From: an uncultured Erysipelotrichaceae bacterium
GTDB lineage: Bacteria > Bacillota_I > Bacilli_A > RFN20 > CAG-826
Length of the DNA: 64,000 nt
Reading direction: 5' to 3'
Assembly: GCA_902796125.1 (NCBI GenBank)
Contig: CADBNT010000064.1
Coordinates: 698-64,697, forward strand
Part shown: positions 27,880-55,774 of the stretch, in pieces
Position numbering within the stretch: the first letter of the stretch is position 1
How the letters are laid out: each line of letters starts with the position of its first letter
Program-made: the position numbers and the translations under genes
Notes under the pieces: model-generated
Database searches by the model: none
The model's input: the letters and a program-made list of their open reading frames with translations, nothing else
Told to the model about the DNA's origin: nothing

Positions 27880-28005
27880 AATTAAGACCTTCTTTTCGAA
27901 TTATTGCACGAGCGAAAACTTTCGCGCATAGCACATAGATTATACGTTACACACGAAAAATATCAAGCGCAGGCACGTCACGTAAAATAAAAAAGCGCCA
28001 TTATT

Positions 28006-28488: not shown

Positions 28489-28498
28489 TATTTATATA

Positions 28499-29743: not shown

Positions 29744-30511
29744 TTATTTGCTATTAAGAGATTGAAGATTAACAATTTCAAATAAGATTTCATTTTCTAA
29801 GCAATGGTTGATAATGGTGTTTTTATCAAAAACGTTCATAGATGAAGGAATATATACTTTTTTAGGCTTTAATGTAAATAAACTAACATAATCACCAAAG
29901 TGTTTACTATCATCATGCCCATAGATTCTATATTCACATTCGAAATCATATTTCTTTTTCTTACGCAAAAGAGAGTTTGTAACAATATGTACTTTGTTTT
30001 TTCTGCTTAACGTCAATAGCAGATTATCTGAAGCAAATTTATGCCTCTCTTTATTTAATAAATCATCGCCAACCAAGTCAAAATATTCATTTATAAATTC
30101 AGAAAAATCATAAGGATCATCTATATATTGAATTGCTCCATAGTGCAATCTATATGGTATATCCAACCATAATTGATGGTTAATAATCCGCATTATTTCC
30201 CTTTCATCATATTCAAGGCAAAAACCACAATTAGAAGTAAATTTATCCCAAAGTGAAAGAGATTGAGAACTGGCGGGTGGAACAGAAGAAAAGCAAGAAA
30301 GATAATAATGACTGCGACAATTATCGATTAGATGATGCACTACTTGATTGGCAATCAAAATGATTTTATTTTTCTTTAGCCTGTTCTTATCAACAAACCA
30401 ATCCAGTTCTCCTTGATCGTCAAAATATTTAAACAAAGTACCATTGATTTGGTTCTTTATAAAATAATCAATGTTATATCTATTTGCTGACCTGTACTTG
30501 AAAACTTTCAT
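29744..30511 (-). CDS. Hypothetical protein, DUF2971-like N-terminus
   Basis: 255 aa, soluble. Begins MKVFKYRS..., reminiscent of the DUF2971 family often seen in defense islands. No catalytic motif. Confidence 0.4.
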   Translation of the reverse strand: MKVFKYRSANRYNIDYFIKNQINGTLFKYFDDQGELDWFVDKNRLKKNKIILIANQVVHHLIDNCRSHYYLSCFSSVPPASSQSLSLWDKFTSNCGFCLEYDEREIMRIINHQLWLDIPYRLHYGAIQYIDDPYDFSEFINEYFDLVGDDLLNKERHKFASDNLLLTLSRKNKVHIVTNSLLRKKKKYDFECEYRIYGHDDSKHFGDYVSLFTLKPKKVYIPSSMNVFDKNTIINHCLENEILFEIVNLQSLNSK

Positions 30512-30616
30512 GGCAAATTATTATAACACCCACCAAGGAGAGTGGTCTTTTCTGAGAAAAGGCATTCGCTTAAGCCAGTATTAGAAAACAATAACAATCA
30601 CTATTTTGATTAGATG

Positions 30617-30656
30617 TCTTTAACGTGCTGTAATAATCCCTATTAATTTTTGTAGC
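30617..30656. repeat. Left copy of an imperfect direct repeat (TTTAACGTRCTGTAATAATCCC...TTTTTAGC) flanking the 3-gene cassette
   Basis: tctttaacgtgctgtaataatccc at 30617-30640 matches tttttaacgtactgtaataatccc at 36477-36500 in 22 of 24 positions. Both are followed by a T-rich ...tttt(g)tagc segment. Confidence 0.6.
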
Positions 30657-31030
30657 ATATTATTCCGACTGTAACAATCCTAATTAGAGGTGTGTTGAGC
30701 CTATATGCTAAATAATATACATGAACATAAGAATAGTTAAGATTAATGTCTTTTTAAGATGAAATCACATTCTAGTTTTCCAATTCTCCCAACGGATGCT
30801 TCATATCTCTTGGACTTAGCGTATAAATAAACGGTATTTTTAAGCGCGGTTCCACAATTGATCCTACTGTCAGGATTTGTAAATATAGTTAAGATAAATT
30901 GCCAAATAATATTTCTTTTCGTTTTGAAACATCTTTTTTTGGATTTCAAATCAAATCTATCACATTCATAAATAATCTTTTATTTGAAATTAATAATCAT
31001 TCGGACACTGTTCCATCTTAATATGAAATT

Positions 31031-34000
31031 TTATTTTTTTATTTTACTCTTGGCTCGAATTGAGTTTTGAGCATTTGCATTTCCGTTTGTAATTAAATGA
31101 ATAAGTTCACCAGAATTCTTTTCAACCCATTCATAATTATCAAGACAAAATCTTCTTCCAATTAAGGCTGCGCTTCTTAAAACAAACTTATCCTTTTCTG
31201 TTTTTAAACATTTCTTCGTTTCATTAACGAACTCAGTCCTATCTGTTGAAAAAGATAAAAGCATTAATTTCTGAGCTAAATGTACATTGTCTTTGTTCAA
31301 AGAAAGTTGGTTGCGAACAGTTTCTATGATTATTGGATTGCGAACAAATCGAGTGCAAATATCGAAAATTGATAGAATCGAAGCATGTATCTCCCACGCT
31401 ATGGATTGTTTCACATATTGATAAGTTACTTTTGTTTGAGGGATTTTAGATAACTGATCATAAACCCGCACAAAAAGAATATCTAGTTTTTTAATTGTAT
31501 CAGCTAGATAAACATTAATAATGGCATAAGGTAACTTAATCAACATTTCTGCAAGCTGGTTCTTCGCATCTTTCCTTAGAACACTAGAAAAATTATTCAT
31601 GATAGAAGAAATTATCAGCGCTTTATTTAACAAGTCATCCAAGCGTAAAAAAGTTGTTCTGCTAATATCGTAATAAAAGTAATCATCTTTGTGACTCAAA
31701 TGAATCTTTCGATTTTTTTCTTCTTCTAATCCTTGCTTTTCCCTTATTTCATTTCTTTTCTTTTTACTTATCTCCAATGCTTTAAATCCTTCATCATTAT
31801 CATCTAATGCTTTGAAAAACGAATCGAAAGAATCGAATTTCATCTCAGGTTCTTTCATTATTCCATCATATAATTCCTTGATAAAAAACTCTGGAATAGT
31901 TCTAATTTCATAATTTGCAGCAATCGAAAATAAAATCTGAAGATTGATTGGTTTATAAATTCCGTTCTCAATTATTTTCTTCAAATATGTTTCATCCTCA
32001 TAATTATTTTTCTTATACATTGCAAATTTTGAGACGTAATGAGCAAAAGTTTTTCTATTGTAGAAAGAAAGTTCGTCTTTTTCGTTTCTTTTAAGAATTT
32101 CAATTTGTATGAGCATTTCAATAAAAGAATCTATGCTTTTGATTGGAGCTCTACCACCATATTCATCGGCCCTTTCTTTTATAGCTTTTATAAACATATT
32201 TTTATCGATCGTGCTCGTTTGCTTTAAATAAGCATCCATAGCAACAAAAGCTATAATATCCTCAGCTATGTTGCAATCGCAATATTGGTAGCCACCTTCT
32301 TTTAAAGCACGATCAAGCATTACTTTAAGTTTTGTTTGAAATAGTGAGTTTGATGGTGATATTTGATAATTTGCTTTTTTTAAATATGATAATGAAACAT
32401 ATATGATATTTGAAGGATCCATCATATTGTCAACATCCAATTCTTTCAACTTATTCTCAATATTTTGTACATAATTATTAAAATCTAAATTATCAACTAA
32501 AGATGGCGTTGTATCTTTAACATATGAATAGACTTTTTCATAAAGTTTTGCCCGTTTATCGTAAAAGAATGGTTCTATTTCAAAAACCTCAAATTCATAT
32601 TCATTATCATCTTCTTCGCTCGATATAAAATCCTTTGATGATAAAGTTGTATAAATAATAGAGCCAAATAATTTTAAAGCATTTCTGAATAAAATGCGTG
32701 ATCCTTTGATTAGGTTATCAATAATCAGGATTCTCTTCTCTTTTGGGACGCAATAAAAAGAGTCGATATCATTCTTTTCGGCATAAAGTTGTTTTAATTG
32801 CCTTGCTATGCTCGATTCTAAATCGGTTCCCAAATCGTCTCCCTTACAAATTAATGGTAAATATCCTTTCTTTCTATATGCCTCAAAAAGATGTTTGACA
32901 AATTGTGATTTCCCAGAACGCACATCTCCTAATATTTTAGTAACACCATCAGTTGCTCTAGCGGATTCGAAACGCTCAAAAGTTGTTATCGATTCTTGGT
33001 TAGAATACTTCTTATGGCTTAGCTTTGGAAAAACAAATAGTTTTTCAATAGGAACAACTAGATTGTTAACGCCATCAAACACTTCCATGTTGCGCAATTC
33101 TTTTATCCTATCGCTTGCAACAATTTGGCCAAATGATGTTGAAAACTTTCTATGTATACTTGCAATGGAAGAAAACTTAAAAATATATTGGTCGATAGAA
33201 AAAGAATAATAATCTGTTTGAATCTTCTCATCATCAAACAAAACAATCGAGAAACCTGACATGTTATTGCAATCTATAGCGGAGGCCGTGAATTCAAGTA
33301 GTTCAGATTCTTCGTTGATGGTTTTTTCAAGCTGTTCCTTATGAACGTGACCAGTAAAAATTGCATCTATTCTGTTTGATAGATTTGTTTTTATGTAATT
33401 AAGACATTCACTTCTTAAATAATTAATAGGCATATGCATAAGAAGAAAAACATAATCGTTATTTTCGCGAGAAATATCCAAAAATTGATTCCTAATATAG
33501 ATTTTTCCTTTATTCAAATCCATACCTTTGTAGTCCTTGTCAAAAAATGACAATAGCGCATTGTTTAAAGAATAAATACGGACTCTTTCCTCACCAACCA
33601 TACAATCGTAACGCTTCAAAATAGGATTTACATTTTCAAAACTAGGGCATATTCTTTTCTCAAAATCGAAATAATGCTTGTTTAGATAAAGATTATTATT
33701 CATTTCCGTTTCATAATTACTTTTGGTAATGGAAGAAATGTAATTAAGATCACGTTTTTCACCATTATTGAAAAGCCTGTCATGATTTCCCGGACACAAA
33801 GATACCTTTACCCTCTTTTCATTAGAAATATTACTAACCAATTCTCTAATATAATTTTCTGCATATACATATTCACTGCTTTTTCCTGTTTTGGATATAT
33901 CACCAGAAAACAAAATTAAAACATCGCGATATTCTGAATACTTGCTGTTCAATATGTTTGAAATGCTTTTAATTTTCTTTTCTTTGCTTTCAACAACGTC

Positions 34001-34042
34001 TTCAATGTGTAAATCGCTAATATGCAACGTTAATAATTTCAT
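31031..34042 (-). CDS. Large multidomain protein: N-terminal calcineurin-like metallophosphoesterase, central P-loop NTPase, C-terminal helical region
   Basis: Metallophosphoesterase motifs LHISDLHIE (like D-x-H), FSGDISKTG (like GD), and CPGNHD (like GNH[DE]). Walker A GDVRSGKSQ and Walker-B-like RILIIDNL. 1003 aa. The ATGA start overlaps the upstream ATPase gene. Confidence 0.65.
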   Translation of the reverse strand: MKLLTLHISDLHIEDVVESKEKKIKSISNILNSKYSEYRDVLILFSGDISKTGKSSEYVYAENYIRELVSNISNEKRVKVSLCPGNHDRLFNNGEKRDLNYISSITKSNYETEMNNNLYLNKHYFDFEKRICPSFENVNPILKRYDCMVGEERVRIYSLNNALLSFFDKDYKGMDLNKGKIYIRNQFLDISRENNDYVFLLMHMPINYLRSECLNYIKTNLSNRIDAIFTGHVHKEQLEKTINEESELLEFTASAIDCNNMSGFSIVLFDDEKIQTDYYSFSIDQYIFKFSSIASIHRKFSTSFGQIVASDRIKELRNMEVFDGVNNLVVPIEKLFVFPKLSHKKYSNQESITTFERFESARATDGVTKILGDVRSGKSQFVKHLFEAYRKKGYLPLICKGDDLGTDLESSIARQLKQLYAEKNDIDSFYCVPKEKRILIIDNLIKGSRILFRNALKLFGSIIYTTLSSKDFISSEEDDNEYEFEVFEIEPFFYDKRAKLYEKVYSYVKDTTPSLVDNLDFNNYVQNIENKLKELDVDNMMDPSNIIYVSLSYLKKANYQISPSNSLFQTKLKVMLDRALKEGGYQYCDCNIAEDIIAFVAMDAYLKQTSTIDKNMFIKAIKERADEYGGRAPIKSIDSFIEMLIQIEILKRNEKDELSFYNRKTFAHYVSKFAMYKKNNYEDETYLKKIIENGIYKPINLQILFSIAANYEIRTIPEFFIKELYDGIMKEPEMKFDSFDSFFKALDDNDEGFKALEISKKKRNEIREKQGLEEEKNRKIHLSHKDDYFYYDISRTTFLRLDDLLNKALIISSIMNNFSSVLRKDAKNQLAEMLIKLPYAIINVYLADTIKKLDILFVRVYDQLSKIPQTKVTYQYVKQSIAWEIHASILSIFDICTRFVRNPIIIETVRNQLSLNKDNVHLAQKLMLLSFSTDRTEFVNETKKCLKTEKDKFVLRSAALIGRRFCLDNYEWVEKNSGELIHLITNGNANAQNSIRAKSKIKK

Positions 34043-35289
34043 ACCGCTATCTCCTTGTTGCCTTTAAAAAAACTATCATTCAAAAAATAATCTATTCCGG
34101 TTTCATTTGAGCCTGTCAAATCGTAACAGTAAACAATGATTTTGATTGTACCATTATTTAATGAAAGTAAATTGCCTATTTCTCTATCATAATTTGCTGC
34201 CGTTATCGTGTGTGCAACCTGAATGTGATAATCATTGCCATTTAATCGATAATTAAAATCAATCTCACCATCAATTTTATTCTTTTTATTCAAAATGATT
34301 TTTCCTCTAGGATTTATTCCTCTAGAAATCAACTCAAGATATACTGCATTTTCTAAACAATTTGATCTGGCTTTATTTTGATTTTCGCATTTTATATAAC
34401 GGATACCGTTATCGCTAAAATAATATTTCTTATTCAATCCAATGTTTTTTAAAGGAGTTTTCTCATTAAAATCATCTACTTCTATGTATGATGTCAAAAA
34501 TGAATTATCAAAGAATTCTAAAACATCTTCAATATCTTTAATCAGTAACATCATATCAAATTTGGTGTTATCCACTCCCTTTGCGAATCTAAAAGCGACT
34601 TGACTTGGGCTAAACGGCGATGCACTAGATGCTAAAAGCGATAGAATCTCATCGATATGGTTTTTAGAAAGATAATTTAATTTTCCTTCTAATCTATCTC
34701 TAATATCTAGTTGATAAATTTCATTGCAAATTTTGCGTAACTCGGAAACGCGCTTTTCTGGCTCCTCATTGATAATAACTGGCAATCCACCATAAAGCAT
34801 GTATTCTTCGAAGGAATAATCACTCTTGTCTTCAACGATTTCTTTATAAGTTAAGGACCTCAAATAAAGCGGATTTGCTAATTCTTTAAAGTTTTCAACG
34901 ATATCCCAAGAAAGAATATCGCTGTTTGAACCAGAAACATAAAGTGTGATATTTTTGTTATCTTTGACAAAATCAGAAAAAAATTTAACATAACCTTTGA
35001 TGAGTTGAGCTTCATCCACAATCAGAACTTTTATATCGTTTTTTACAAGTTTAAAAACCGCTGAAGTTAATTGAGCTAGTGTTTCAATATTCCTATTCTC
35101 ATCGTTTAGTTTTAAAATGCCGATTTCTTGTTCTAAAGCATAATGATTTTCTATTAAATGCTTTTTAAATAGTTCGGTTAAAAGATATGTTTTTCCAGAT
35201 CTTCTAAGACCAGCAACTATATTCACTTTTCCATTGCCGAGAAAAGAAACAAGTTCATTAATTTCGTTTAATCTCTTAAAATCCGCCAT
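34039..35289 (-). CDS. AAA_14 / DUF4143-family ATPase
   Basis: Walker A AGLRRSGKTYLL, Walker B VLIVDEAQ, and a C-terminal DUF4143-like segment KKYYFSDNGIRY. 416 aa. Confidence 0.75.
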   Translation of the reverse strand: MADFKRLNEINELVSFLGNGKVNIVAGLRRSGKTYLLTELFKKHLIENHYALEQEIGILKLNDENRNIETLAQLTSAVFKLVKNDIKVLIVDEAQLIKGYVKFFSDFVKDNKNITLYVSGSNSDILSWDIVENFKELANPLYLRSLTYKEIVEDKSDYSFEEYMLYGGLPVIINEEPEKRVSELRKICNEIYQLDIRDRLEGKLNYLSKNHIDEILSLLASSASPFSPSQVAFRFAKGVDNTKFDMMLLIKDIEDVLEFFDNSFLTSYIEVDDFNEKTPLKNIGLNKKYYFSDNGIRYIKCENQNKARSNCLENAVYLELISRGINPRGKIILNKKNKIDGEIDFNYRLNGNDYHIQVAHTITAANYDREIGNLLSLNNGTIKIIVYCYDLTGSNETGIDYFLNDSFFKGNKEIAV

Positions 35290-36364
35290 AACCTTTTAAT
35301 CCTTTCTCTAATAAATTTTCTAAACCATAATATGCAATGCCAGTTTTATCAATAATTAACTCCATGTGACCCAAAACAGCAACCATTTGAGGAATGTGTG
35401 TTTTTGTTTTTTTAAATCTTTCAACTATTTCATCATTATCCCCGAAATCTATTTTGATGATGCATTTACGATCAAAATATTCAATCAAGAATCCGCGATT
35501 AAATTCCACTCTTGATTTATATTTGCCTTCAACTGTATCTGCATGGTAAGAAATAGCTCTATTCACCATATAGTTTTCCGAAAACATTTTCGCTACCAGG
35601 AAGGCTTCACATTTAAGCTTGTATTTCTTTTCGTGAGGCAAATCGGTTAAATCTATATCGGAAACGAATGTTGGGTAGAAAACAAAACCTGATGATAGTT
35701 CATCCATATCTTTAACATCAACTCTTTTTAAGAGATAAATCATTCCTAATTTATTCATTAGGTTAATAGTGTCGACATAGAACATTAGTCTTCTATCAAT
35801 TGATTTGGTTTGCTCTAAAACATGTCTAAAAGATAAAACTTCACCACTATGATTAACTAGATACTTATAAAGTTCAATGGCGGCATCCTTGGCACCATAA
35901 TTCTCTAAAGGTTTTATGTGATAATCTTCACTCTTTATATCATCACCATAAAGCATTGGTGCTAAAAAGAATCTAATATATCTTCCACGAACCTGCGTAT
36001 CTTTATTTTTTAATTTATAAGAGACTTCAATATCGCTTGTAATAATTCCATCAATATTATTCTTTCCATAGAAAACATTAATTATTGCCTCTGGATAATA
36101 GAAGAAGAATAAATCATGAATAAGCACCACTGCTCTATTGTCTTTACAAAAATCAATGATATCAGCAAGTCTTCCTAAAATATTTCTGTCAGAATATTTC
36201 TCTGGATAAAATTCAAAGAACAAGCAATTATTAATTTTACCTTTAATTGCTTCTTTAACTTCACCAAGTAAATAATTACCTGCTTCGGTTTCCCTGTTGC
36301 AAGTTATGACCTTGGCTTTGCCATTACCGAGATTATCTAAAATATTGAGCGTTAATCTTTTCAT
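35276..36364 (-). CDS. Hypothetical protein, first gene of the repeat-flanked cassette
   Basis: 362 aa, soluble, with no motif I recognise. It overlaps the ATPase gene by 14 nt, so they are translationally coupled. Confidence 0.5.
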   Translation of the reverse strand: MKRLTLNILDNLGNGKAKVITCNRETEAGNYLLGEVKEAIKGKINNCLFFEFYPEKYSDRNILGRLADIIDFCKDNRAVVLIHDLFFFYYPEAIINVFYGKNNIDGIITSDIEVSYKLKNKDTQVRGRYIRFFLAPMLYGDDIKSEDYHIKPLENYGAKDAAIELYKYLVNHSGEVLSFRHVLEQTKSIDRRLMFYVDTINLMNKLGMIYLLKRVDVKDMDELSSGFVFYPTFVSDIDLTDLPHEKKYKLKCEAFLVAKMFSENYMVNRAISYHADTVEGKYKSRVEFNRGFLIEYFDRKCIIKIDFGDNDEIVERFKKTKTHIPQMVAVLGHMELIIDKTGIAYYGLENLLEKGLKGYGGF

Positions 36365-36476
36365 AGTTCTATTATATTATTTTTTTACAAAATTTCAACT
36401 TTTATTATGGTTTGTATTATTTTAGTTAATCTTTTTGCCATAACACTTTTAATATTTTTGCATTTTTGTCACGGTA

Positions 36477-36512
36477 TTTTTAACGTACTGTAATAATCCC
36501 AACTTTTTTAGC
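36477..36512. repeat. Right copy of the direct repeat
   Basis: See the left copy. It sits in the 235-nt intergenic region upstream of the 362-aa gene. Confidence 0.6.
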
Positions 36513-36598
36513 TATTTCAAATAGTTCCGATGGACTCAGTCCAATATCGCAATTATTCTACAAAATTCTGTGTAATACTACTAGGTGATAATAATGTG

Positions 36599-37876
36599 CT
36601 AGCAGCTTTTGAAATCGCGCACCTTAACAACGAATAACGAACTATACAAAGTTGGGCTGCCCGTTTTAAATCCAACAACTTGTACATAATGATTTCCATT
36701 ATATGATGTGTGTTCTTCTCTAATTAATCTAGAAGAAGGACTTATTTCAACATTTGATTCTTCGCAGCCGCCCCTCAATTGGTTTGCAATTCTAGCTTCG
36801 TATCCGGCGTTAGAAATAACAAATTTAAAATCATAGCCTGAATAGAATGAACTTTTATTTATTTCAAATCTTAAATACGTTTCTTTATCTACTGTATCAC
36901 CGCTTTGAACAGTCGTAGAAGTTCCTTTTATGTGACAAGATAATGATAGTAAAGGTGACTGAATTTGATAATTAAGTAGATTTGAGTGTTGTTTGGCATT
37001 TTTTTGATATGCCTCAGCGATTCTTGTTTCTAAATCATTAATTGAAGAATTTGAAATCAAATAATTAATAACAAGATGTTCATCATCGGTTAGTAAAACT
37101 TCATATAAATTTTTTATAAACTCTCGGATTGTAAAGAATTCACTATTACTATGTATGTCCATGATATTGTTTCCATTTGGATTCGCCGGATCATATATTT
37201 TTGTGATACCTATTTCAAAATAATGTTTAGAGAATTCGATTAATTTTTCCACTAATGATGAATTGTCATCCAAGCAAGGTTCCACAACATCAACTGCAAA
37301 AATCTCTAAAAAGAATGATTTAAAAGCAAAGTTATGAGTTTTTCTTAAAATTTTTATTATTCTAACTACATCTTTCATTTTTGAAGACTGTATCTTTTTT
37401 ATTTGTTTTTCTGGATTACTCTTCAATCTCGAATCATCTTTATTGCAATATAAATAAACATCTTTTTCGTCACCACCACTTGAATATTTACCAGGAACAA
37501 CATCAACGGAAATGTCTTCCCAAATTCTGTAGTCTTTACCATAAACTAGAATCGCACTATTTTTCTTTTGAATTAAATACCCGGCTTTAGTTAACGCAGA
37601 TGCGATACCATTATAAATATCGCGAACTGATAATTGGGTGTCGCTTTCAAAATAAACAAGCAAATCTATATCGCAACTATCTTTATTAGCGGTTCCTTTA
37701 GCTAGAGAACCACCATAGCGATAATTTGGCTTGGCATCAAACCCTTCATTTATTGCCGATTCGATAGGATCACGGATGACGTTTTTAAAATGTTCCCAAA
37801 GGCCATCTTTAATTTGGTGTTTTGATAATAATTCTTTAAATATTGCATCAGTCAGCATATTAAATAGTCTTCGCAA
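36599..37876 (-). CDS. Pol-beta-superfamily nucleotidyltransferase, SMODS / CD-NTase-like
   Basis: GGSLAKGTANKDSCDIDLLVYF contains the GS...DxD nucleotidyltransferase signature. A downstream acidic DISVDVVP and a KSFFLEIF helix are reminiscent of cGAS/DncV-like enzymes. 425 aa. Confidence 0.55.
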   Translation of the reverse strand: MRRLFNMLTDAIFKELLSKHQIKDGLWEHFKNVIRDPIESAINEGFDAKPNYRYGGSLAKGTANKDSCDIDLLVYFESDTQLSVRDIYNGIASALTKAGYLIQKKNSAILVYGKDYRIWEDISVDVVPGKYSSGGDEKDVYLYCNKDDSRLKSNPEKQIKKIQSSKMKDVVRIIKILRKTHNFAFKSFFLEIFAVDVVEPCLDDNSSLVEKLIEFSKHYFEIGITKIYDPANPNGNNIMDIHSNSEFFTIREFIKNLYEVLLTDDEHLVINYLISNSSINDLETRIAEAYQKNAKQHSNLLNYQIQSPLLSLSCHIKGTSTTVQSGDTVDKETYLRFEINKSSFYSGYDFKFVISNAGYEARIANQLRGGCEESNVEISPSSRLIREEHTSYNGNHYVQVVGFKTGSPTLYSSLFVVKVRDFKSC

Positions 37877-38657
37877 TCTTAAACGTTTTCAAATTCAAAG
37901 AGAAAGCATACTCATTGTTTAAATACTCATAAACAATAATTTCTGGATGTCTTTCTTCAATGGCTGTTCCAACAACAAAAGAGACAGGTTGTTTTGCAGA
38001 AATATACATATTTATTCTTTTAATATTTCTTGTTTGTGACCACACTAACACAGATTCTACAAATTGATATACCTTTTGCAAATATTTATTATCAATTTTA
38101 TTATTTGTTAATTCTTCGAATTCGAACGTTTTTAAAGATGCATTATATTTTGAAGGCGAAATCTTATATGTACTTGAAATAACTATATTGATTTCATTTC
38201 CAACTAAAACATCGCCACATTCGATTTCAGCGGGACTATTGCTTGATTTTTTTGAATAAAGAATTGAATAATATGAGTTTTTATTATTGTCATAGCAAAT
38301 TAAATCTAATTTAGTTGTATTACCAATTTCCATTCCATCAAAAACAGCAAACATTGGTGAAACAAATCCGCCATAAGTAAAATCAATGTTTTCTTTAAGA
38401 TTTCTTTTTATTTGAAATAACCTATACTGCATCTTCTTAAAATGTGTTCGATACATTTTATAACTTGTGGGTAAATTCTTGCCTAAAACAATGACTTTTG
38501 AATCTTTAACATTAATACATTTGCTACGGCACGCTTCTTCCAAGTTAAAAGACTTTTTGTTTGAATTAAGATAAACTATGCTTTTGTTTTTCCAAAAAAT
38601 GGCAGTTATACATGCCCAAATCTTTTTAAAAATAAATAATCCCGTTTCTAAAGTCAT
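37860..38657 (-). CDS. Hypothetical protein with an N-terminal hydrophobic helix and a beta-strand-rich C-terminus; candidate effector partner of the NTase
   Basis: 265 aa. The N-terminus GLFIFKKIWACITAIFW is hydrophobic. The C-terminal half alternates hydrophobic and polar residues (IVISSTYKISP, VSFVVGTAIEE, IIVYEYLNNEYAFSLNL). Its 3' end overlaps the NTase start by 17 nt. Confidence 0.45.
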   Translation of the reverse strand: MTLETGLFIFKKIWACITAIFWKNKSIVYLNSNKKSFNLEEACRSKCINVKDSKVIVLGKNLPTSYKMYRTHFKKMQYRLFQIKRNLKENIDFTYGGFVSPMFAVFDGMEIGNTTKLDLICYDNNKNSYYSILYSKKSSNSPAEIECGDVLVGNEINIVISSTYKISPSKYNASLKTFEFEELTNNKIDNKYLQKVYQFVESVLVWSQTRNIKRINMYISAKQPVSFVVGTAIEERHPEIIVYEYLNNEYAFSLNLKTFKIAKTI

Positions 38658-38782
38658 GTAATCTCCGTTTTTTATATTATAAAAGAACTAAAGAAGGCAT
38701 ACCACAAAAACAAACGAAACAATCTACTTTCGCTTCTCTCTTTTTTGATGGATTTATAGACACAAAAGGAACAGGCGCCACT

Positions 38783-38991
38783 ATGGATAGTAAAGACAAT
38801 GTTATCATAGACAAGAAACCTTCATGCGAATATAACATCTGTCTTTATATCTTAGAAGAATTATACGATAAGGGGGGTTATTGATGTCTTTTGAAATGAC
38901 TGAAGCCATAATTCTTCTGAGAAAGAAATACAAAATACCTAAAAATATCTATGGTAAAAAAGACAATAATTCCAGCAAACTAAGAAATTAG
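38783..38991 (+). other. Two tandem, translationally coupled micro-ORFs (33 aa and 35 aa)
   Basis: ORF A is ATG 38783 to TGA 38884 (MDSKDNVIIDKKPSCEYNICLYILEELYDKGGY). ORF B has its ATG at 38884, sharing TGATG with ORF A's stop (MSFEMTEAIILLRKKYKIPKNIYGKKDNNSSKLRN), and is preceded by the strong SD AAGGGGGG. Both fall below the length cut-off of the ORF track. Confidence 0.2.
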
Positions 38992-39084
38992 GAAAAGAAC
39001 TATCAAAAACGAGTCCAGATTATAAATTATGATTCTGTGCTTGTGTTTGTGTATCTACTGACGCAGAAGAGCGATTAGAGTCTT

Positions 39085-39690
39085 TTATCTATAGATTCGA
39101 CGATAATAATGATGTAGCATGTAGAAAACAAACATATGCTCGTCTAAATTCGAAATTGAAAAGTCAATGTTACTGTTATAAGCGTTCAATCCATGGGCAA
39201 GGGTATTACGCGACTTTCTACAAGCCTTATACAACTCTTTAAAAATTGAAAAATCAGTAAAATTATAGATAGTAACAAGTCCACTTAAAACGATACTGTG
39301 TTTCCTGTATTTATTAAATTCTATTTGAGTGGTCCCAATTAGAACATCACATTCATTGACTATTTCAGCCATTTTATCCGCATCAAAAAAATATGGCATT
39401 TTAGTGTCGTCAGGAATCACAAAGGCGCGAATTGTTCTTCCAACCCTATTTCGCCTTGAGTATACAGAAACAATTCCTCGCAAAGTTGCTTCAATAGCTA
39501 CATAAATGTCAAAATAGTATTTAAAAAACAGGGCGTTTTCTTGATCGGTATCTTCGCTATCATGTTTTTCCCACAAATTATCAGTAATAGTTAGTCGGTT
39601 CTTCAAAAGAAGAATTATCTCACTTGGAGAGAAAATCTGTACAACTGCCATCTTATTCAATAAAAGTCCCGACCGTTTCAAACCTATCAA
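39085..39690 (-). CDS. HEPN-motif (R-x4-H) protein, putative RNase/effector
   Basis: CRKSRNTLAHG contains Rx4H in an otherwise helical 201-aa protein. Its start overlaps the DUF262 gene by 38 nt. Confidence 0.4.
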   Translation of the reverse strand: MIGLKRSGLLLNKMAVVQIFSPSEIILLLKNRLTITDNLWEKHDSEDTDQENALFFKYYFDIYVAIEATLRGIVSVYSRRNRVGRTIRAFVIPDDTKMPYFFDADKMAEIVNECDVLIGTTQIEFNKYRKHSIVLSGLVTIYNFTDFSIFKELYKACRKSRNTLAHGLNAYNSNIDFSISNLDEHMFVFYMLHHYYRRIYR

Positions 39691-40798
39691 TGATTGTTTT
39701 TTTATTGGTCGTTGACCAATAAAACGGATTATCTATTTTTTCTGTTTGACACCAAAATTCAATTTTTTTCTTATTAAAATACTCTAAATCAAAATTCCTG
39801 CAACCATTTATCATAAAATATACTATTATTGCTTCTGCAGTAACCTCGTGGAAAGAGTTGTTTAATCCTTTTCTTTCTTCCGATACCCCGAGAAAAATAG
39901 ATGAATCATATTTTCTCAAAAAGTCGAACACATCTTTGATAATTTTGATGTGTTCACAATAATTGATTCTTTGAATATTAGATAAATACATGTACTGTGA
40001 AAGCATTGTTTTTTTAGACCCTGTAATTCTAATATTTGTTTTATCTGCCAACATATCTGTGTTGTGAAGCAATTGTTGTGTGATTTGATAATATGTCAAA
40101 CATCTTAAAATAAATTCCTCGCCCAATCCTCGTTCACTATATTTTCTTTTCGCAAATATACTGCCAAGCTTTTTTTCTGTCAAAAAAACATCCTTTAAGC
40201 ATCTACTTAAATCGCCATTATAGACTGCATTTCTTATTTCTTGATCAGTTAATTTTGCAGAGCCTGTATTTATTCTTTCAAAAATTTCTGTCATATAAAG
40301 TTTTTTTGTTGCTTCGTTATTTTCGACAGAATCAAAAACATTAAACTTTAATGAATAATCATCAAAAATATCTCTGTCTTCTGGCGATAAAGAATTGTAC
40401 GTAAAACCATTCCATTCACTACCCGGCAAATTTATCTTAAAAAGTTTATGAATTGTTCCGTTATCATAATGACCTTTTACAAATTGTTTAATACAAGTAA
40501 ATCTCTGCAAACCGTCAATCAATACAAATCGCTCATTATTGTTTTCTCTATCTCTAAATAAAAATAAATCTGGAACTGGTAAGCCTAAAAGGAGGGATTC
40601 AATAAATTTGCAACATTGTTTATAATCCCAAACAAAATTCCTTTGGAATTCAGGAATTACGATTTTGTTCCTTTCTTCAAGAGACAATAAATCACGAATA
40701 CTTCTTTCAATTTTAAAGGAATTGAATGAATACCTAGAAATCTTAATTTCCTCATCGAAGTTTTCATCAATCATTTCCATATAATTTCTCCTTTTCAA
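39653..40798 (-). CDS. DUF262 (ParB/Srx-like, GmrSD N-terminal domain) protein
   Basis: IPEFQRNFVWDYKQCCKFIESLLLGLPVPDLFLF and LIDGLQRFT correspond to the DUF262 QR/DGQQR motifs. 381 aa. Confidence 0.7.
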   Translation of the reverse strand: MKRRNYMEMIDENFDEEIKISRYSFNSFKIERSIRDLLSLEERNKIVIPEFQRNFVWDYKQCCKFIESLLLGLPVPDLFLFRDRENNNERFVLIDGLQRFTCIKQFVKGHYDNGTIHKLFKINLPGSEWNGFTYNSLSPEDRDIFDDYSLKFNVFDSVENNEATKKLYMTEIFERINTGSAKLTDQEIRNAVYNGDLSRCLKDVFLTEKKLGSIFAKRKYSERGLGEEFILRCLTYYQITQQLLHNTDMLADKTNIRITGSKKTMLSQYMYLSNIQRINYCEHIKIIKDVFDFLRKYDSSIFLGVSEERKGLNNSFHEVTAEAIIVYFMINGCRNFDLEYFNKKKIEFWCQTEKIDNPFYWSTTNKKTIIDRFETVGTFIE

Positions 40799-40900: not shown

Positions 40901-41647
40901 TCACTTCACATTCTTATATTTTTTCTTGCCGTAAAACGCCCATCTAACAACATAGAACCAACTCTTAAACCAATTAATTCCTTGGGTTTTATGGTAGACA
41001 CGATGCATTTTTCCGATGAGCTTAAATTTATTAGATGATTTGCTTCCAGGAAGAATGTTATATGTAGCAAGAACTTTCGGATTTCCTTTAGCAACATATC
41101 CTTTCCTTAATATATTGAGCCAAAATACATAATCTTCTGGTCTATCAATATCTTCAGGAAAGAATACTTCTCCAATAACACTTCTATCATACATAGTGGT
41201 TAAACAAGAAAGAGGATTTCCTTTTAATGCTTTTTTATAATCAACTTCATCAGGCACAAAAAAATCGGTACATGTACGTTTGGCCTTTCTTCTATATCCA
41301 GCAGAAATAAGAGGTCCATGTTCTTTTATAAACTCCAATTGACATTCTAAATAATTAGGATCTAGTTCGTCGTCAGAATCTAAAAAAGTAATGTATCTGC
41401 CACTCGCATGTTTTAAACCTAGGTTTCTTGCAACAGAAGTTCCACTATTTTTATCGGTTCTTAAAATGATAATCCTATTATCTTTTTTTGAAAGCTCTTC
41501 AATTAGTTTAAAAGAACCATCAAACGAATTATCGTCAACAACGATCCATTCCCAATCTGAAAAGGTCTGGGAAAGTACACTCTCGTACGTTTCTTTTATT
41601 GTCTTTTTGCAATTGAATGCAGGTGTAATAATACTAACTAGTGTCAT
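40901..41647 (-). CDS. Glycosyltransferase family 2
   Basis: VSIITPAFNCKKTIKETYESVLSQTFSDWEWIVVDDNSFDGS is a classic GT2 N-terminus with DXD. 248 aa. Confidence 0.8.
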   Translation of the reverse strand: MTLVSIITPAFNCKKTIKETYESVLSQTFSDWEWIVVDDNSFDGSFKLIEELSKKDNRIIILRTDKNSGTSVARNLGLKHASGRYITFLDSDDELDPNYLECQLEFIKEHGPLISAGYRRKAKRTCTDFFVPDEVDYKKALKGNPLSCLTTMYDRSVIGEVFFPEDIDRPEDYVFWLNILRKGYVAKGNPKVLATYNILPGSKSSNKFKLIGKMHRVYHKTQGINWFKSWFYVVRWAFYGKKKYKNVK

Positions 41648-41758
41648 ATGATTCGCTAATTTTTCTTTTAATATAATAATTTATTAACTTTCTAATGTCT
41701 ATTTTATAGACAGCTATTTGCAAAATTATTACTTAAATTATTTAATCTCTTGATAGAT

Positions 41759-41977
41759 TTATATCGCATATGGAAAAGGCACCACTTTTTTTAGAGTTTG
41801 TAGTGCTTTAATTCTTGGTTCATTAGCAGTCAATTTTTTCACAAATTCAAAAGAACCATCAGTAGATTGATCATCCACTATTATCCATTCCCGTTCAGAA
41901 TATGTTTGAAAAACAACGCTTGCAAACGTTTGCTGACTTGATTCCTTTGAGTTAAAAAGGGTGCAATATTGAAACAA
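41759..41977 (-). pseudogene. N-terminal fragment of a GT2 glycosyltransferase paralog (degenerate remnant)
   Basis: TLFNSKESSQQTFASVVFQTYSEREWIIVDDQSTDGSFEFVKKL aligns to residues about 10-55 of the adjacent GT2. The frame terminates after about 72 codons and no further coding signal follows. Confidence 0.55.
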
Positions 41978-42026
41978 TGTTTTGGATTATAAGCCAAAAA
42001 CGAACAAGTAAATATAATTTGTGTTG

Positions 42027-43040
42027 TTATTTTTTAAAAATCTTTCTTCTAAGTGACACCAAGTGTTTTGCAATTTGTTTGAAGAAAAACAATAAAGGAA
42101 TAGAAGAAATGTGTACTCTAGGTATTAAAAAAATGTTAGGAGCAAAAATACTTTTGTATGGATTAAATCCGCCAAAATCAAAGAAAGTTACTCCCATACT
42201 TTTAAATTGTTTAATTGCTTCCCAGCGAATAACGTGGTTCATATTGGTTTTCTTTTGAGATGTAAAAGAAGCGCTTCCAAAAGATAACGCATAATCTCTA
42301 TACACAAAATATATAGCTGTTCCTATCTCTTCGCCTGTAGAGGTGTTAATGGATTTATAACAGACAATATTATCCTGATATTGATTAAAAGATTCGAAAA
42401 GAGACACTACCTTTTCAAGACTGTAAAATGGCTTTAATTTTTGCAGAGCAAAAACTTCAATTAATTCATCATAGTATAATTTAACAAATTCATTGTTTGG
42501 AGCTGCTTTGACAACATCTAAATCATGATGCTTATAATTTCGTATTTTTTTTCTAAGTTGCTTCGGAAGTTTATTAAACAACGTTTCCTCGTCTTCCCTG
42601 AGATCGTAGTTCATATTTTTTATAACTTCATAAGTGATTTTATTATTTTTTAATTCTTCCAAAGAAATGTTTTTGTCGGTAATTTCGAAATACTTGATTT
42701 TATACTCTTTTTTAAGATACTTAAAAAGACCGCGAATTATAATCGAATAATCTTTAATCGGTTTTTCTGAATAAAAACCAATATAAGGTGTGTTCCACCC
42801 TTCAAATGGTGAGCAAAACATTTTTATGCCTAGTTTTTTAGTGATAAAACCATATGTATACACCAATTCACCATTGAAAGAAATCTTAAAAGCTAATGGA
42901 GTTCCAGGAACATTTTTAGTTAGAAAGTTTATCCAAGGTTCTGCAATAAAAATTGTTGGATTTAAAACGTTTTGGGTTAGTTTGTAAAAACAATCAAAAT
43001 TTATTTCTTCTATAGCCATTTCGTAATTATTTTTTTTCAT
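42027..43040 (-). CDS. FemAB-family (Acetyltransf_6/GNAT-fold) aminoacyl-transferase-like protein
   Basis: The C-terminal HVIRWEAIKQFKSMGVTFFDFGGF resembles the FemAB LQWEAI...YDFGG motif. 337 aa. Confidence 0.5.
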   Translation of the reverse strand: MKKNNYEMAIEEINFDCFYKLTQNVLNPTIFIAEPWINFLTKNVPGTPLAFKISFNGELVYTYGFITKKLGIKMFCSPFEGWNTPYIGFYSEKPIKDYSIIIRGLFKYLKKEYKIKYFEITDKNISLEELKNNKITYEVIKNMNYDLREDEETLFNKLPKQLRKKIRNYKHHDLDVVKAAPNNEFVKLYYDELIEVFALQKLKPFYSLEKVVSLFESFNQYQDNIVCYKSINTSTGEEIGTAIYFVYRDYALSFGSASFTSQKKTNMNHVIRWEAIKQFKSMGVTFFDFGGFNPYKSIFAPNIFLIPRVHISSIPLLFFFKQIAKHLVSLRRKIFKK

Positions 43041-43803
43041 CTTTAATTAATTCCTCTATTGATAATGTCTCAATTACATTTTTGTTGTTTACCAAGAAGG
43101 AACACAATTTCATAAATGAATCTTCTCCCCACTCCCAATCGTCAGCAGGATTCTCGACAATCGAATGAAACATAATGATAAGTGTTTTGTTAGTTTCTTT
43201 ATAATCATTAATAAAACGAATTAGATCCGACACTTTGGTGTGCTTTTTCACTACTAATGAGAATAATAAATGTTTATCAATTAAAGCCAACAAATTAGGT
43301 TCATTGAATTTCTTGTAGCAATGATAGAGGTGAAATAGTTTGTAAAAAACATAATTGACTTTGTTCTTAAACGAGTAGCATGACGGATTTCTTCCGCCTC
43401 TAATATATAAAATATCTTTTTCGTTTTTGTTTAAAAATAGTTTTAATTCATCTGAAGAATATTTGGAATTGGGAATTGAAAAACCATACTTCGGTTTTTT
43501 GATTCCCCATGATGATAGTTTCTTAATAGAAGTCAAAAAATCATCGACTTCCATAACATGTTTATCACCATGAGATGAAATATCCATATTATTGTCATGC
43601 ATTTCTAAAAGATGCTCTTTAGAAAGAGACTTTCTATCATTGCCGAAATCATTTGAAATGTACGTGCCATCGATAAAACCAGTCGCAATATGAAATGATG
43701 CATTCAAATTTGCGTTTTTTAGTATTTTATATGCAGCGAAAAACGAATCAATTCTTCCGTCATCAAAAGATAAACATATCTTCATAATAATGCCGCACCT
43801 CAA
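43027..43803 (-). CDS. Polysaccharide deacetylase (CE4/NodB-like)
   Basis: SFDDGR motif near the N-terminus and a downstream His cluster. 258 aa. Confidence 0.65.
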   Translation of the reverse strand: MRCGIIMKICLSFDDGRIDSFFAAYKILKNANLNASFHIATGFIDGTYISNDFGNDRKSLSKEHLLEMHDNNMDISSHGDKHVMEVDDFLTSIKKLSSWGIKKPKYGFSIPNSKYSSDELKLFLNKNEKDILYIRGGRNPSCYSFKNKVNYVFYKLFHLYHCYKKFNEPNLLALIDKHLLFSLVVKKHTKVSDLIRFINDYKETNKTLIIMFHSIVENPADDWEWGEDSFMKLCSFLVNNKNVIETLSIEELIKDEKK

Positions 43804-44861
43804 TTACTTTTTTCTATTATTTCTTTTATTGAACTAAGCCAATTTTTAATATCAAAATCACCAAACGGTTCATTAAGACTATTATTTCTTGTGTTGTGCA
43901 AAGATTCGATTTTATTAACATTGAAATTTGACTCAACTAGGGAAAAACAGTTGTCGTTCAAAAATAGAGAAATGTGTTGTTTAAACAAAGCCGGGTTTAA
44001 AAAGACAGAAAGACCATTCGTAAATGATTCAATAGCAACAAGAGGAAATGCTTCGTGCAAAGATGGAATAATTATTGCATCTAGCACAGAAAGTAATTCG
44101 TGCACATTTTCTTTTTGGCCCACGAAAACGCAATTGCTAGGCGCTACCGCTTTTATGCGTTTTTCATATTTCGAATCAACAAATCCACCAATAAATAAAA
44201 ATGTTATTTGCGGATATTGATTGGCTTTTTTAACTAAAAATAATTGATTTTTTTCTTTAGAAATTCGTCCAACGCAGCCAACAATTAATTGTTCGTTGGA
44301 ATAACCTAAATTTTTTCTCAATTCTTCTCTATTTGTTTTACTAAATAAAAATTTGATAGAATCTATGCCATTGTAAAGTGTCAAATCAGCCCTTCCCATA
44401 AACATAAATTTATTGCATTGCTCTGAAACGGCTATTTTGAAACCTATTTTTTTAAATACTTTTCTACCAATATTGTGTATTACTTTTTTAAAAATATTTG
44501 CTGTATGGGCATTGTGACCGTGTATCAACACTTTGCACTTTGCTTTTTTTAATTCATTAAGAAGAGGCCAATTGCAATAAGAAGATAAATTCACATAAAG
44601 AATATCGTCGCGGTCCAAATTATTAATTATTTTTTTTAAAGATTCTTTGTATTTAAATATTTGTTTTTTTGGTTGAATTGTTCTAATTTCAACCCCTTTT
44701 TTTAGATATTCTTCTTGGAAGGCTATTCTCTCATAGCAGGTTACAATGGTAATTGATCTTCTTTTTTCAGCAGATAAATCATTAATGAGATAATTCATCA
44801 TCAGCTCAATTCCACCTCTAACGCTATCAATACCAAAAATATAGATTCTATTCATTTTCAA
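43800..44861 (-). CDS. Glycosyltransferase family 4
   Basis: GT-B C-terminal domain with the EAFPLVAIESFTNG motif. 353 aa. Confidence 0.7.
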   Translation of the reverse strand: MKMNRIYIFGIDSVRGGIELMMNYLINDLSAEKRRSITIVTCYERIAFQEEYLKKGVEIRTIQPKKQIFKYKESLKKIINNLDRDDILYVNLSSYCNWPLLNELKKAKCKVLIHGHNAHTANIFKKVIHNIGRKVFKKIGFKIAVSEQCNKFMFMGRADLTLYNGIDSIKFLFSKTNREELRKNLGYSNEQLIVGCVGRISKEKNQLFLVKKANQYPQITFLFIGGFVDSKYEKRIKAVAPSNCVFVGQKENVHELLSVLDAIIIPSLHEAFPLVAIESFTNGLSVFLNPALFKQHISLFLNDNCFSLVESNFNVNKIESLHNTRNNSLNEPFGDFDIKNWLSSIKEIIEKSN

Positions 44862-45930
44862 TCACCTCACAGTATTTTGAAATAATTGCTTTTTGATCGA
44901 ATCTATTCGAATTTGCGATTGCGGCTGTTGTTAGGCGTTCGCAGAGTTCATCATCATCAGATAAACGAGCAAGTTGGGACGCAAAACTTTCATAGTCTTG
45001 TCTTTTATATAATAATCCATCAGTTTCATCAGTAATAATATCTTCAACACCAGGCCAATCACTAGACAAGCATGGGATTCCTAAAGAATAACATTCTAAC
45101 AAAGCATTAGACATTCCTTCGAAATCGCTAGTCATCACAAAACAGCGGTAATCAATTATTGTGTTATGGATATTTGGCAATGGGTCTTTAATAATAATAT
45201 TTGAAGGACATTTGGTTTTCGATATAAGGGCTTGGATAGCACCTTTATCTTCTCCTCTTCCGTAGATCTCCAAAAAATATTCAGGATGGGTTTCATGGAA
45301 TAACTCGAATCCTTTAATTAAAATATCTTGCCTCTTTTGATTAATTAAGAGTCTTGATAATGTAAATATCTTTTTCTCGCAAAAATTACCATGTTTGATA
45401 ATTGTTATTGATAAAGGGTTTGGAATAACAACTCCTTTGTTTCTGATTCTTTTGTGAAAGCATTTTTTCTCGTGTTGAGTTTGGAAAATAATACTTTTGA
45501 CGTTTCTACATAATACTTCGGTTATGAAATTCACAAACCTGTTTCTTACTTTAGATTTAGGGTCGCTAATTTCTCGGATGGTAATTCTTTTTGAATATTT
45601 CGGAGCAAAAAAGGAAACCATAGATCCTATCTTAAATGTCATACAAAGAATTGAATCTGGCCTATATTTTTTAGTATTCTCTTTGATCATTTTTTTCCAA
45701 ATTCCAATTGATTTAATTTTTTGTTTCGATGGATTGTTTTTGCCATAAAAAGGAACTACATTCACCTTTTCATTTAAATATTGGAAAGTATTATTGCCTT
45801 GCTCTTTTTGCAACAAGGTTAAAATAACAACATTCCATTGTTTGTCGGCAAAATGGTTAGCAATAAAACAGGTTATTCTTTCCAAGCCACCAGTACCCAA
45901 AGATCCAGTAACAATCATTAAAGTTTTCAT
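44848..45930 (-). CDS. Glycosyltransferase family 4
   Basis: EGMSNALLECYSLGIPCLSSD motif. 360 aa. Confidence 0.8.
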   Translation of the reverse strand: MKTLMIVTGSLGTGGLERITCFIANHFADKQWNVVILTLLQKEQGNNTFQYLNEKVNVVPFYGKNNPSKQKIKSIGIWKKMIKENTKKYRPDSILCMTFKIGSMVSFFAPKYSKRITIREISDPKSKVRNRFVNFITEVLCRNVKSIIFQTQHEKKCFHKRIRNKGVVIPNPLSITIIKHGNFCEKKIFTLSRLLINQKRQDILIKGFELFHETHPEYFLEIYGRGEDKGAIQALISKTKCPSNIIIKDPLPNIHNTIIDYRCFVMTSDFEGMSNALLECYSLGIPCLSSDWPGVEDIITDETDGLLYKRQDYESFASQLARLSDDDELCERLTTAAIANSNRFDQKAIISKYCEVIENE

Positions 45931-53392: not shown

Positions 53393-53442
53393 CCATATCT
53401 CCAGGGGCAAAAATATTTTATAAAAATAATTTATTTTTTCAA

Positions 53443-53805: not shown

Positions 53806-53806
53806 A

Positions 53807-55631: not shown

Positions 55632-55640
55632 ATTTCTCTC

Positions 55641-55716: not shown

Positions 55717-55774
55717 TTCTAAGAGGAATAGTTTCCCTCTAATAAAACTGCCCGAAGGCAGATTATTAATTAAA

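Follow-up and report, generated by a model that had tools for sequence, protein, structure and literature searches.

A predicted two-gene CBASS module from an uncultured Erysipelotrichaceae bacterium pairs an AGS-C-fused CD-NTase with a short SAVED protein without a canonical transmembrane span

A 64,000-nucleotide stretch of a contig from an uncultured Erysipelotrichaceae bacterium (GenBank assembly GCA_902796125.1, contig CADBNT010000064.1, positions 698 to 64,697; the window) carries a gene for a putative cGAS/DncV-like nucleotidyltransferase (CD-NTase, here also called the cyclase) and, directly upstream of it, a gene for a 265-residue partner protein; both proteins are already deposited in NCBI and ENA without names. 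The locus raises the question of whether these two genes make up an antiphage signaling unit and, if so, what kind of effector the partner is. A preliminary description of the sequence had proposed a two-gene type I cyclic oligonucleotide-based antiphage signaling system (CBASS) with a Cap15-like effector that could be assigned to no known family. The proposal of a two-gene unit is borne out here by a tight, co-conserved pair without ancillary genes, and we regard the pair as very probably a type I CBASS. The partner is reassigned: it is predicted to be a receptor of the SAVED family. The open reading frame (ORF) list places both genes on the minus strand at the positions given earlier, and chance ORFs are excluded because the two proteins have homologues with E values down to 1e-164 and 1e-262. 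The coordinates of all features are collected in Table 1.

The partner was classified by profile searches, structure prediction, and fold comparison. The Pfam SAVED model PF18145 matched it with 38.7 bits against a cut-off of 26.2 (E = 1.1e-09) and the NCBIfam SAVED model NF033611 with 50.7 bits against a cut-off of 33, so that the protein is assignable after all. The CBASS effector models of PADLOC also matched (2TM at 2e-18, 1TM at 7e-12, and SAVED_TM, where TM denotes transmembrane), over their SAVED portions only. An AlphaFold2 (AF2) model built from 54 sequences, with a predicted local distance difference test score (pLDDT) of 89 and a predicted TM-score (pTM) of 0.90, consists of a short helix (residues 9-20) and, from about residue 25 to the C terminus, a mixed alpha/beta domain of 12 strands and 7 helices. 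When this model was compared with the PDB by Foldseek, the best matches were 9wq3 and 9wq2, which are 3TM-SAVED proteins with 2',3'-cGAMP (a cyclic GMP-AMP; E about 6e-14), followed by 9om7, the SAVED domain of BtCap14 with the same ligand (1.2e-13, target-normalized TM-score 0.68), and then by the SAVED domains of Cap5, SAVED-CHAT, Cap4, and CalpL. Altogether 73 PDB entries matched at E ≤ 0.001, and the best 50 were all SAVED-domain proteins. Besides the motif beginning at Tyr29 (Table 1), the domain carries the conserved YGGFVSPMFAVFDG. These results indicate that the partner is a SAVED-domain cyclic-nucleotide receptor, with ligand binding predicted, whose SAVED domain is closest to that of Cap14. 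The Cap14 ligand, 2',3'-cGAMP, is not transferable to the window protein because its SAVED domain shares only 16-18% identity with that of Cap14.

Only about 24 residues precede the SAVED domain in the AF2 model. The hydrophobic helix that the preliminary description had placed at this end is real as a hydrophobic segment, but it lies below the usual threshold for a TM span (best Kyte-Doolittle 19-residue window [KD-19] of 1.37, broken by KK), and the C-terminal part, which had been called beta-rich, is mixed alpha/beta. Across the 54-member family the best KD-19 value has a mean of 1.03 and reaches 1.6 in six proteins, the longest uncharged run in the N-terminal segment averages 9 residues, and a lysine occurs every 6-7 positions. 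On the Wimley-White interfacial scale the helix has a mean free energy of -4.6 kcal/mol versus +2.7 kcal/mol for the median window elsewhere, and it is the best interfacial window in 34 of the 54 proteins; Lys12 and Trp22 are nearly invariant. In a profile-profile alignment its counterpart in 1TM-SAVED relatives is the helix located after their TM span. We propose that this segment of about 18 residues may serve as an interfacial, membrane-binding output module.

Those relatives emerged from a profile of the effector family, which retrieved 116 cluster representatives among 1.84 billion proteins. The short tier, to which the window protein belongs, is made up of the full-length proteins, of about 250-278 residues, among the 27 representatives with E ≤ 1e-30, a set that also contains several shorter fragments. 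A second tier comprises proteins of 308-324 residues with one strong TM helix (KD-19 of 1.9-3.7), a third comprises Cap14-like proteins of 340-375 residues with at least two TM helices, and a fourth holds a few alpha/beta-hydrolase-SAVED fusions. Alignment of the short family with the 1TM group by hhalign gave a probability of 99.8% (E = 6e-28) and ran end to end, from query residues 8-265 to template residues 48-324; alignment with the Cap14-like 2TM-SAVED profile gave 99.6% and covered query residues 86-260 only. From these comparisons, the short family is best described as a putative TM-less derivative of the 1TM-SAVED effector family. In the searchable literature, which does not cover some key papers, we found no CBASS effector described as a stand-alone or TM-less SAVED protein. 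Among the hydrolase fusions, P0152 (479 residues) and P0162 (496 residues) have a SAVED domain near the short family behind an N-terminal alpha/beta-hydrolase with a GHSLGG lipase/esterase motif, that is, another output module on the same sensor; the profile alignment of P0162 spans positions 4-260.

The small size of the protein could also have had a trivial cause. We considered that it might be a truncated pseudogene of a 2TM-SAVED protein and rejected this idea, because its homologues (17, then 58) are about 250-292 residues long and share its start, apart from a few fragments on short contigs, and because an in-frame TAA lies eight codons upstream of its ATG. A 53-residue hydrophobic ORF at 38677..38838 was likewise considered as a missing TM part and set aside; it overlaps a decayed repeat element on the opposite strand and is probably not a gene.

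The downstream protein had been described as a 425-residue CD-NTase/SMODS-type enzyme, and this held: the PADLOC oligonucleotide-cyclase model PDLC00803 matched residues 10-256 at 5.8e-47, with several further PADLOC cyclase models matching the C-terminal third, and CD-NTase structures headed the fold ranking. (Residue numbers are those of the 419-residue form that starts at the ATG at 37858.) The sequence contains the Pol-beta signature motif reported earlier, GGSLAKGTANKDSCDIDLLVYF, as well as a third acidic residue, within SVDVVP; Gly49, Gly50, Ser51, Lys54, Asp63, Asp65, and Asp119 are invariant in 56 homologues; and the G-S, D63-I-D65, and D119 motifs align with the active-site motifs of Escherichia coli CdnC. 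In an AF2 model from a 56-sequence alignment (pLDDT 90, pTM 0.88), an NTase core and helical lobe extend from residue 1 to about residue 295, and residues 306-413 form an all-beta segment. This segment corresponds to an AGS-C domain, which the preliminary description had overlooked and which scores above the Pfam gathering cut-off (PF18134, 54.3 versus 26.7 bits); Phe331, Asn350, Gly352, Arg362, Gly363, Gly388, and His390 are invariant in it among the same 56 homologues. Searches of the AGS-C sequence against solved structures gave no match. On the basis of these results, the downstream gene is predicted to encode a CD-NTase with an intact Pol-beta active site fused to AGS-C. About 40% of type I CBASS CD-NTases carry an immunoglobulin (Ig)-like AGS-C fusion, the domain is almost always present in CD-NTase clades B and H, and its role is possibly phage sensing (Richmond-Buccola et al. 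2023, 10.1101/2023.05.21.541620).

The nearest relatives of the cyclase were sought by both fold and sequence. In Foldseek against the PDB the best matches were CdnC (6p8v, 7e-12) and Bacteroides fragilis CdnB (BfCdnB; 7ljo, 9e-12, target-normalized TM-score 0.73, root-mean-square deviation [rmsd] 3.9 Å), with CdnD, CdnG, and DncV likewise among the top matches; the rmsd values to CD-NTases were 4-6 Å. PDB searches by sequence returned only CdnC and weak matches to OAS2. The nearest solved relative is thus CdnC by sequence, and CdnC and CdnB tie by fold. Indirect support for the CdnB clade as a candidate comes from the AGS-C fusion, from a Cap14-type partner at a sister locus (see below), and from the best target-normalized TM-score being to 7ljo, but CdnC is closer by sequence.

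The junction of the two genes reads ...ACT ATT TAA t ATG CTG ACT..., so that the stop codon of the upstream gene and an ATG for the cyclase are separated by 1 nt. The homologues of the cyclase are about 400-422 residues long and all begin at the Met equivalent to ATG 37858; because of this shared length and start, the cyclase most likely starts at that codon. The 17-nt overlap reported previously depends on TTG 37876 and appears to be an artifact of choosing the longest ORF. At equivalent junctions of related loci in which both genes are complete, the spacing ranges from -11 to +5 nt. When the sequence was read for Shine-Dalgarno-like motifs, one was evident before the upstream gene (GGAG, Table 1) and none comparable was found ahead of the cyclase ATG, an arrangement that fits translational coupling of the two genes, which we consider the probable mode of cyclase expression.

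To follow the pair through other genomes, contexts were retrieved with four homologues of the effector, at 35-58% identity, and four of the cyclase, at 37-48%. In all eight independently retrieved contexts a SAVED gene lies directly upstream of a gene encoding a 404-420-residue protein with NTase and AGS-C domains, and the SAVED proteins have 251-270 residues, save for one shortened copy of 221 residues. The same arrangement is found in 95%-identical relatives and in most reference-genome loci. The neighbors differ in every locus and include polysaccharide genes, bacteriophage exclusion (BREX) genes, type I restriction-modification genes, Fic/RNase III, PDDEXK, AbiGi, and TIR/AAA_21 genes. Compared with the nearest relatives (loci L024-L026, 94.7% identity), DNA homology spans exactly 38978 to 36540 and extends beyond the pair by about 320 bp on the upstream side and about 60 bp on the downstream side. 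Neither Cap2/Cap3 (E1/E2/JAB) nor HORMA/TRIP13 nor other ancillary genes were found beside the pair in the window or in more than nine related contexts. Because order and spacing recur in unrelated contexts without a third conserved gene, the pair appears to be an autonomous two-gene module, effector then cyclase. The shortened copy (L011, 5243-5908), which is probably decaying, is separated from its cyclase by a 92-nt gap in a module that is otherwise intact. A third conserved gene as the real effector, for example one in the operon downstream of the pair that encodes a 362-residue protein, an AAA_14 ATPase, and a metallophosphatase, was considered and rejected, because the neighbors vary and homology ends about 60 bp past the cyclase. 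The named hosts of homologues are Clostridia, Bacilli, Erysipelotrichaceae, Coprobacillus, and metagenome-assembled genomes of Acholeplasmataceae. No close copy was found on annotated plasmids, where matches had at most 30% identity over half of the protein, and no copy was found on viral contigs (IMG/VR).

The best evidence that the short SAVED protein is the effector comes from a sister locus, L017 (2957-5224), whose cyclase is 44% identical to that of the pair in the window, matches PDLC00803 at 2e-51, and has in the same upstream position a bona fide 2TM-SAVED protein of 346 residues, with two clear TM helices and matches to the 2TM and SAVED_TM models. The short SAVED protein accordingly occupies the effector slot of the pair, and the comparison points to effector swapping within one cyclase lineage, a TM-SAVED protein having been exchanged for a short SAVED protein.

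Table 1. Positions of the gene pair, its domains and motifs, and neighboring features in the window
Feature	Position	Strand	Remarks
Predicted effector (receptor) gene	37860..38657	-	265 residues, ATG start; TAA stop at 37860-37862; short SAVED protein
SAVED (double CARF-like) nucleotide-sensor domain	37863..38585	-	Effector residues 25-265; AF2, fold matches, invariant columns, hhalign
Motif Y29-x-N31-S32-N33-K34-K35	38553-38573	-	Y29 and K35 invariant, rest nearly invariant (54-member family)
N-terminal hydrophobic Lys/Trp-rich helix	38589..38645	-	Effector residues 5-23 (AF2 helix 9-20); not a canonical TM span
CD-NTase gene	36599..37858	-	419 residues from ATG 37858; alternative TTG 37876 gives 425 residues (36599..37876)
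NTase core and helical lobe	36974..37858	-	Cyclase residues 1-295; catalytic G50-S51...D63-x-D65 at 37664-37714; D119 (SVDVVPG) at 37490-37510
AGS-C Ig-like beta-sandwich domain	36602..36964	-	Cyclase residues 299-419; Pfam PF18134 at 1.7e-14 and AF2
Gene junction TAAtATG	37856..37862	-	Effector stop, 1-nt spacer, cyclase start; read from sequence
GGAG Shine-Dalgarno-like motif	38663..38666	-	5 nt upstream of effector ATG; read from sequence
Upstream region traveling with the pair	38658..38978	-	Presumed promoter region; homology limit 38978; includes element A
Repeat element A	38790-38985		Decayed small ORF on opposite strand
Repeat element B	36464..36516		Downstream of pair; recurs at 30604-30649 and L024 12597-12723 (repeat search; blastn)
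362-residue protein	35276-36364	-	No family match; 27-member cluster, all hypothetical
AAA_14/DUF4143 ATPase	34039-35289	-	PADLOC PDC-S01, 6e-52
1003-residue calcineurin-like metallophosphatase	31031-34042	-	PADLOC PDC-S60, 1.5e-13

A mechanism can be sketched on the model of CdnB-Cap14, where the SAVED domain binds 2',3'-cGAMP with nanomolar affinity and the ligand-induced filaments disrupt the membrane (Tak et al. 2023 preprint; review PMC13434031); according to work from 2026, Cap14 kills through filaments of SAVED in which a multi-helix TM module is arrayed (Tak et al. 2026 and Gao et al. 2026, summarized in PMC13434031). In the window system, phage infection would activate the cyclase, with AGS-C perhaps tuning the sensing, and the enzyme would make a cyclic di- or oligonucleotide, 2',3'-cGAMP being a candidate by analogy only. 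The SAVED domain would bind this signal and polymerize head to tail, polymerization would cluster the N-terminal interfacial helices, which are the only non-SAVED element of the effector, and the clustered helices may then perturb the cytoplasmic membrane and abort the infection. We hold this account as a whole (type I CBASS, SAVED polymerization, and a membrane-perturbing helix) to be reasonably likely; killing by the membrane helix, taken on its own, is tentative, and we judge it slightly more doubtful than probable. That the protein is a natural TM-less Cap14, with an entire output consisting of one 18-residue interfacial helix or of the SAVED filament alone, seems to us rather unlikely; were it true, ligand-driven SAVED polymerization would be sufficient for cell arrest or death, through a route unlike the membrane fissure or channel of the Cap14 TM module, and the protein would define a minimal CBASS effector. 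Several observations weigh against the account. In 48 of the 54 family members the N-terminal helix does not qualify as a TM span; it is only moderately amphipathic (mean hydrophobic moment 0.37, z of 1.3 versus shuffles), some buried core segments are nearly as good on the interfacial scale, and its AF2 confidence is low (pLDDT 54-73), so that it might rather lie against the SAVED domain or serve in oligomerization. For the cyclase, the Pfam SMODS model scored 18.8 bits, below its cut-off of 26.5, and the NCBIfam CBASS_cyclase equivalogs (CBASS_cyclase_a) scored 44 bits, below a cut-off of 200; the enzyme belongs to a divergent lineage.

Other explanations were weighed against the same evidence. 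A type I CBASS with a non-membrane output, in which SAVED filaments act themselves (by sequestration or by occluding the nucleoid or ribosomes) or work through an unlinked host protein that they recruit or activate, with the helix as an oligomerization or autoinhibition element, is unlikely but deserves consideration: the family is without a real TM helix, the helix is of only moderate amphipathicity, SAVED domains are generic ligand-dependent oligomerization modules serving many outputs, and in P0152 and P0162 a closely related SAVED domain has an alpha/beta-hydrolase as its fusion partner. It is disfavored by the absence of a conserved third gene in more than nine contexts, by the nearest relatives (1TM- and 2TM-SAVED) all being membrane proteins, and by the helix, with its conserved Trp-Lys end, being the most interface-seeking segment in the majority of members noted above. 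Panoptes-type systems pair a TM-SAVED effector with an mCpol-type synthase. The enzyme in the window is a Pol-beta CD-NTase with AGS-C rather than such a synthase, and the closest characterized system, CdnB-Cap14, is activated and not repressed by its ligand, so inverse logic of this type, in which a constitutive signal would hold the SAVED effector off until phage sponges or nucleases depleted it and released toxicity, is very improbable here, even though constitutive activity in vitro has been reported for CdnB enzymes and a system of such logic using a SAVED effector is cited in a review (PMC13434031).

The remaining possibilities concern the identity of the two proteins. A viral stand-alone SAVED protein of 235 residues with ring-nuclease activity (9r8s) is among the fold matches (E = 1.8e-9, target-normalized TM-score 0.69), which raises the idea that the short SAVED protein is a ring nuclease or buffer and the pair a regulatory or incomplete module. 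We consider this highly improbable, given that the E values of the matches to Cap14 SAVED domains are lower by four to five orders of magnitude, that the sister cyclase of L017 has a 2TM-SAVED protein in the same position, and that no copy was found on IMG/VR viral contigs; moreover, a synthase with only a degrader beside it would lack an output, whereas the pair travels between defense islands as a self-contained unit. A Cap15-type effector with a TM helix and a nucleotide-binding beta-barrel, the resemblance suggested in the preliminary description, would account for a small protein with an N-terminal hydrophobic segment and many beta-strands, but it is virtually eliminated by the SAVED alpha/beta fold, which is above both family cut-offs, and by the fold ranking, in which all top matches are SAVED proteins and no Cap15 structure occurs among the best 50 of the 73 matches. 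Nor did the profiles or the fold reveal any clear unrelated function of the partner in place of that of a SAVED CBASS receptor. That the NTase is a housekeeping or resistance enzyme (a CCA-adding enzyme or an antibiotic NTase) next to the SAVED gene by coincidence is equally close to negligible: the match to TIGR03671 (archaeal CCA-adding enzyme) is weak (20 bits versus a cut-off of 281), and although CCA-adding structures occur among the fold matches and a homologue carries the label of a CCA-adding enzyme in one metagenome source, Foldseek ranks CD-NTases ahead of CCA-adding enzymes, which appear only at an rmsd of about 18 Å, the PADLOC cyclase match is strong, and the gene is always linked to a SAVED gene.

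The DNA around the pair was surveyed for repeats and for other defense genes. The cassettes are flanked by repeated intergenic elements. A promoter scan of the upstream region gave nothing above the shuffled background, and no terminator was found. Element A is a repeat of about 160-190 nt. In L024-L026 two direct copies of it with 89% identity, 159 nt long in L024 (8899-9057 and 11389-11547), enclose the pair; the window has a single copy, upstream of the pair. Its opposite-strand small ORF encodes 84 or 103 residues in L024, with the core FDKKLPYEYNI..YILEELCDKGVIDVFEM and no Pfam match, and is broken in the window copy by two 1-nt indels. Element B is a 46-70-nt motif with the core AACGTRCTGTAATAATCCC on the plus strand, and it is found in L024 as well as just downstream of two different minus-strand defense operons. 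Between the pair and element B, L024 has the second repeat copy and a 293-residue gene that are both missing from the window, a difference that suggests that cassettes were gained or lost through recombination at such intergenic repeats.

On a larger scale, a defense-like gene run (29744-40798), which also includes a DUF2971 protein, lies inside a polysaccharide/capsule locus with flanks at 25927-29734 and 40901-51145; one side carries Bac_transf, DegT, and UDP-Glc dehydrogenase genes, and the other carries family-2 glycosyltransferase (GT2), deacetylase, family-1 glycosyltransferase (GT1), Wzy, and Wzx-type flippase genes. Because related CBASS pairs in L001, L005, and L024 also adjoin polysaccharide or nucleotide-sugar genes, the locus suggests a recurrent defense hot spot in polysaccharide loci. 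Within the run, three overlapping genes at 31031-36364 (minus strand; Table 1) form an apparent operon, which is a candidate three-gene defense system joining two separately listed PADLOC candidates. At 39085-40798 (minus strand) a gene for a 381-residue DUF262/GmrSD_N protein (PADLOC NsnA at 2e-42 and PD-T4-2_A at 3e-32) overlaps a downstream gene for a 201-residue protein without a family match, and the two probably constitute a two-gene modification-dependent restriction or Nsn-like system. A 72-residue ORF at 41759-41977 (minus strand) resembles the N terminus of a family-2 glycosyltransferase (...EREWIIVDDQSTDGS...) and is positioned just upstream of an intact GT2 gene (40901-41647, minus strand); about 1 kb beyond the island border at 40798, it is likely a gene fragment left by rearrangement. 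The G+C content is about 30% across 28 to 51 kb versus 33-38% elsewhere in the window. The minus strand holds all 49 ORFs of at least 180 residues, the cumulative GC skew declines monotonically from position 1 to 64000, and a tRNA cluster (Leu-TAG, Thr-TGT, Val-CAC, Ile-GAT) is found at 53318-55851 (minus strand); these features fit a low-GC Firmicute-type chromosome arm with strong gene-strand bias.

The short family is small but widespread among gut Firmicutes, and its effector would offer a compact, soluble-looking test of how little effector a SAVED filament needs; at 265 residues, it may also suit biosensor engineering. The locus further adds an AGS-C cyclase from a non-proteobacterial host to the material available for working out what AGS-C senses.

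Among known systems, the pair is most like CdnB-Cap14 of Bacillus thuringiensis 407 and Clostridium botulinum, which likewise has two genes, effector first and cyclase second, and Firmicute-type hosts (Tak et al. 2023 preprint; PMC13434031). The two systems also share AGS-C, which is near-universal in clade B (10.1101/2023.05.21.541620) and present on the window cyclase, as well as a SAVED domain of the Cap14 type at the C terminus (top folds 9wq3, 9wq2, and 9om7; hhalign 99.6%). Cap14 differs in having a Saf-2TM module of 2-3 TM helices, which is absent from the window effector, and in its length (about 340-375 versus 265 residues), and the alignment to the Cap14-like profile begins only at effector residue 86. 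The 1TM-SAVED effectors (PADLOC 'Effector 1TM' PDLC00663; P0149, P0151, P0155, P0156, and P0161; 308-324 residues) show end-to-end homology that includes the helix before the first SAVED strand, but they have about 45 extra N-terminal residues with a strong TM helix, and the window family begins after that helix. Cap15 resembles the window effector in its small size, its type I CBASS setting, and the hydrophobic segment at its N terminus, but its sensor is a minimal beta-barrel, whereas that of the window effector is a SAVED alpha/beta domain. The effector should therefore be filed under neither Cap14 nor Cap15, since it is without the Saf-2TM module of the former and the beta-barrel of the latter. 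Cap5 and Cap4 share the SAVED fold (Foldseek E of 1e-10 to 1e-8) and differ by their HNH or other endonuclease domain, no nuclease domain being present in the window protein. The CD-NTase-AGS-C fusions of type I CBASS have the same NTase core, an Ig-like AGS-C domain of about 120 residues, and a two-gene operon, but the tested examples are gammaproteobacterial and have other effectors, such as Cap15 (10.1101/2023.05.21.541620). Earlier work has described this class of system, the two domain families, and the fusion of a CD-NTase to AGS-C, and PADLOC profiles recognize both genes. The new part would be the effector, which appears to have kept the SAVED domain and the juxtamembrane helix and dropped the TM helix while remaining strictly coupled to an intact cyclase.

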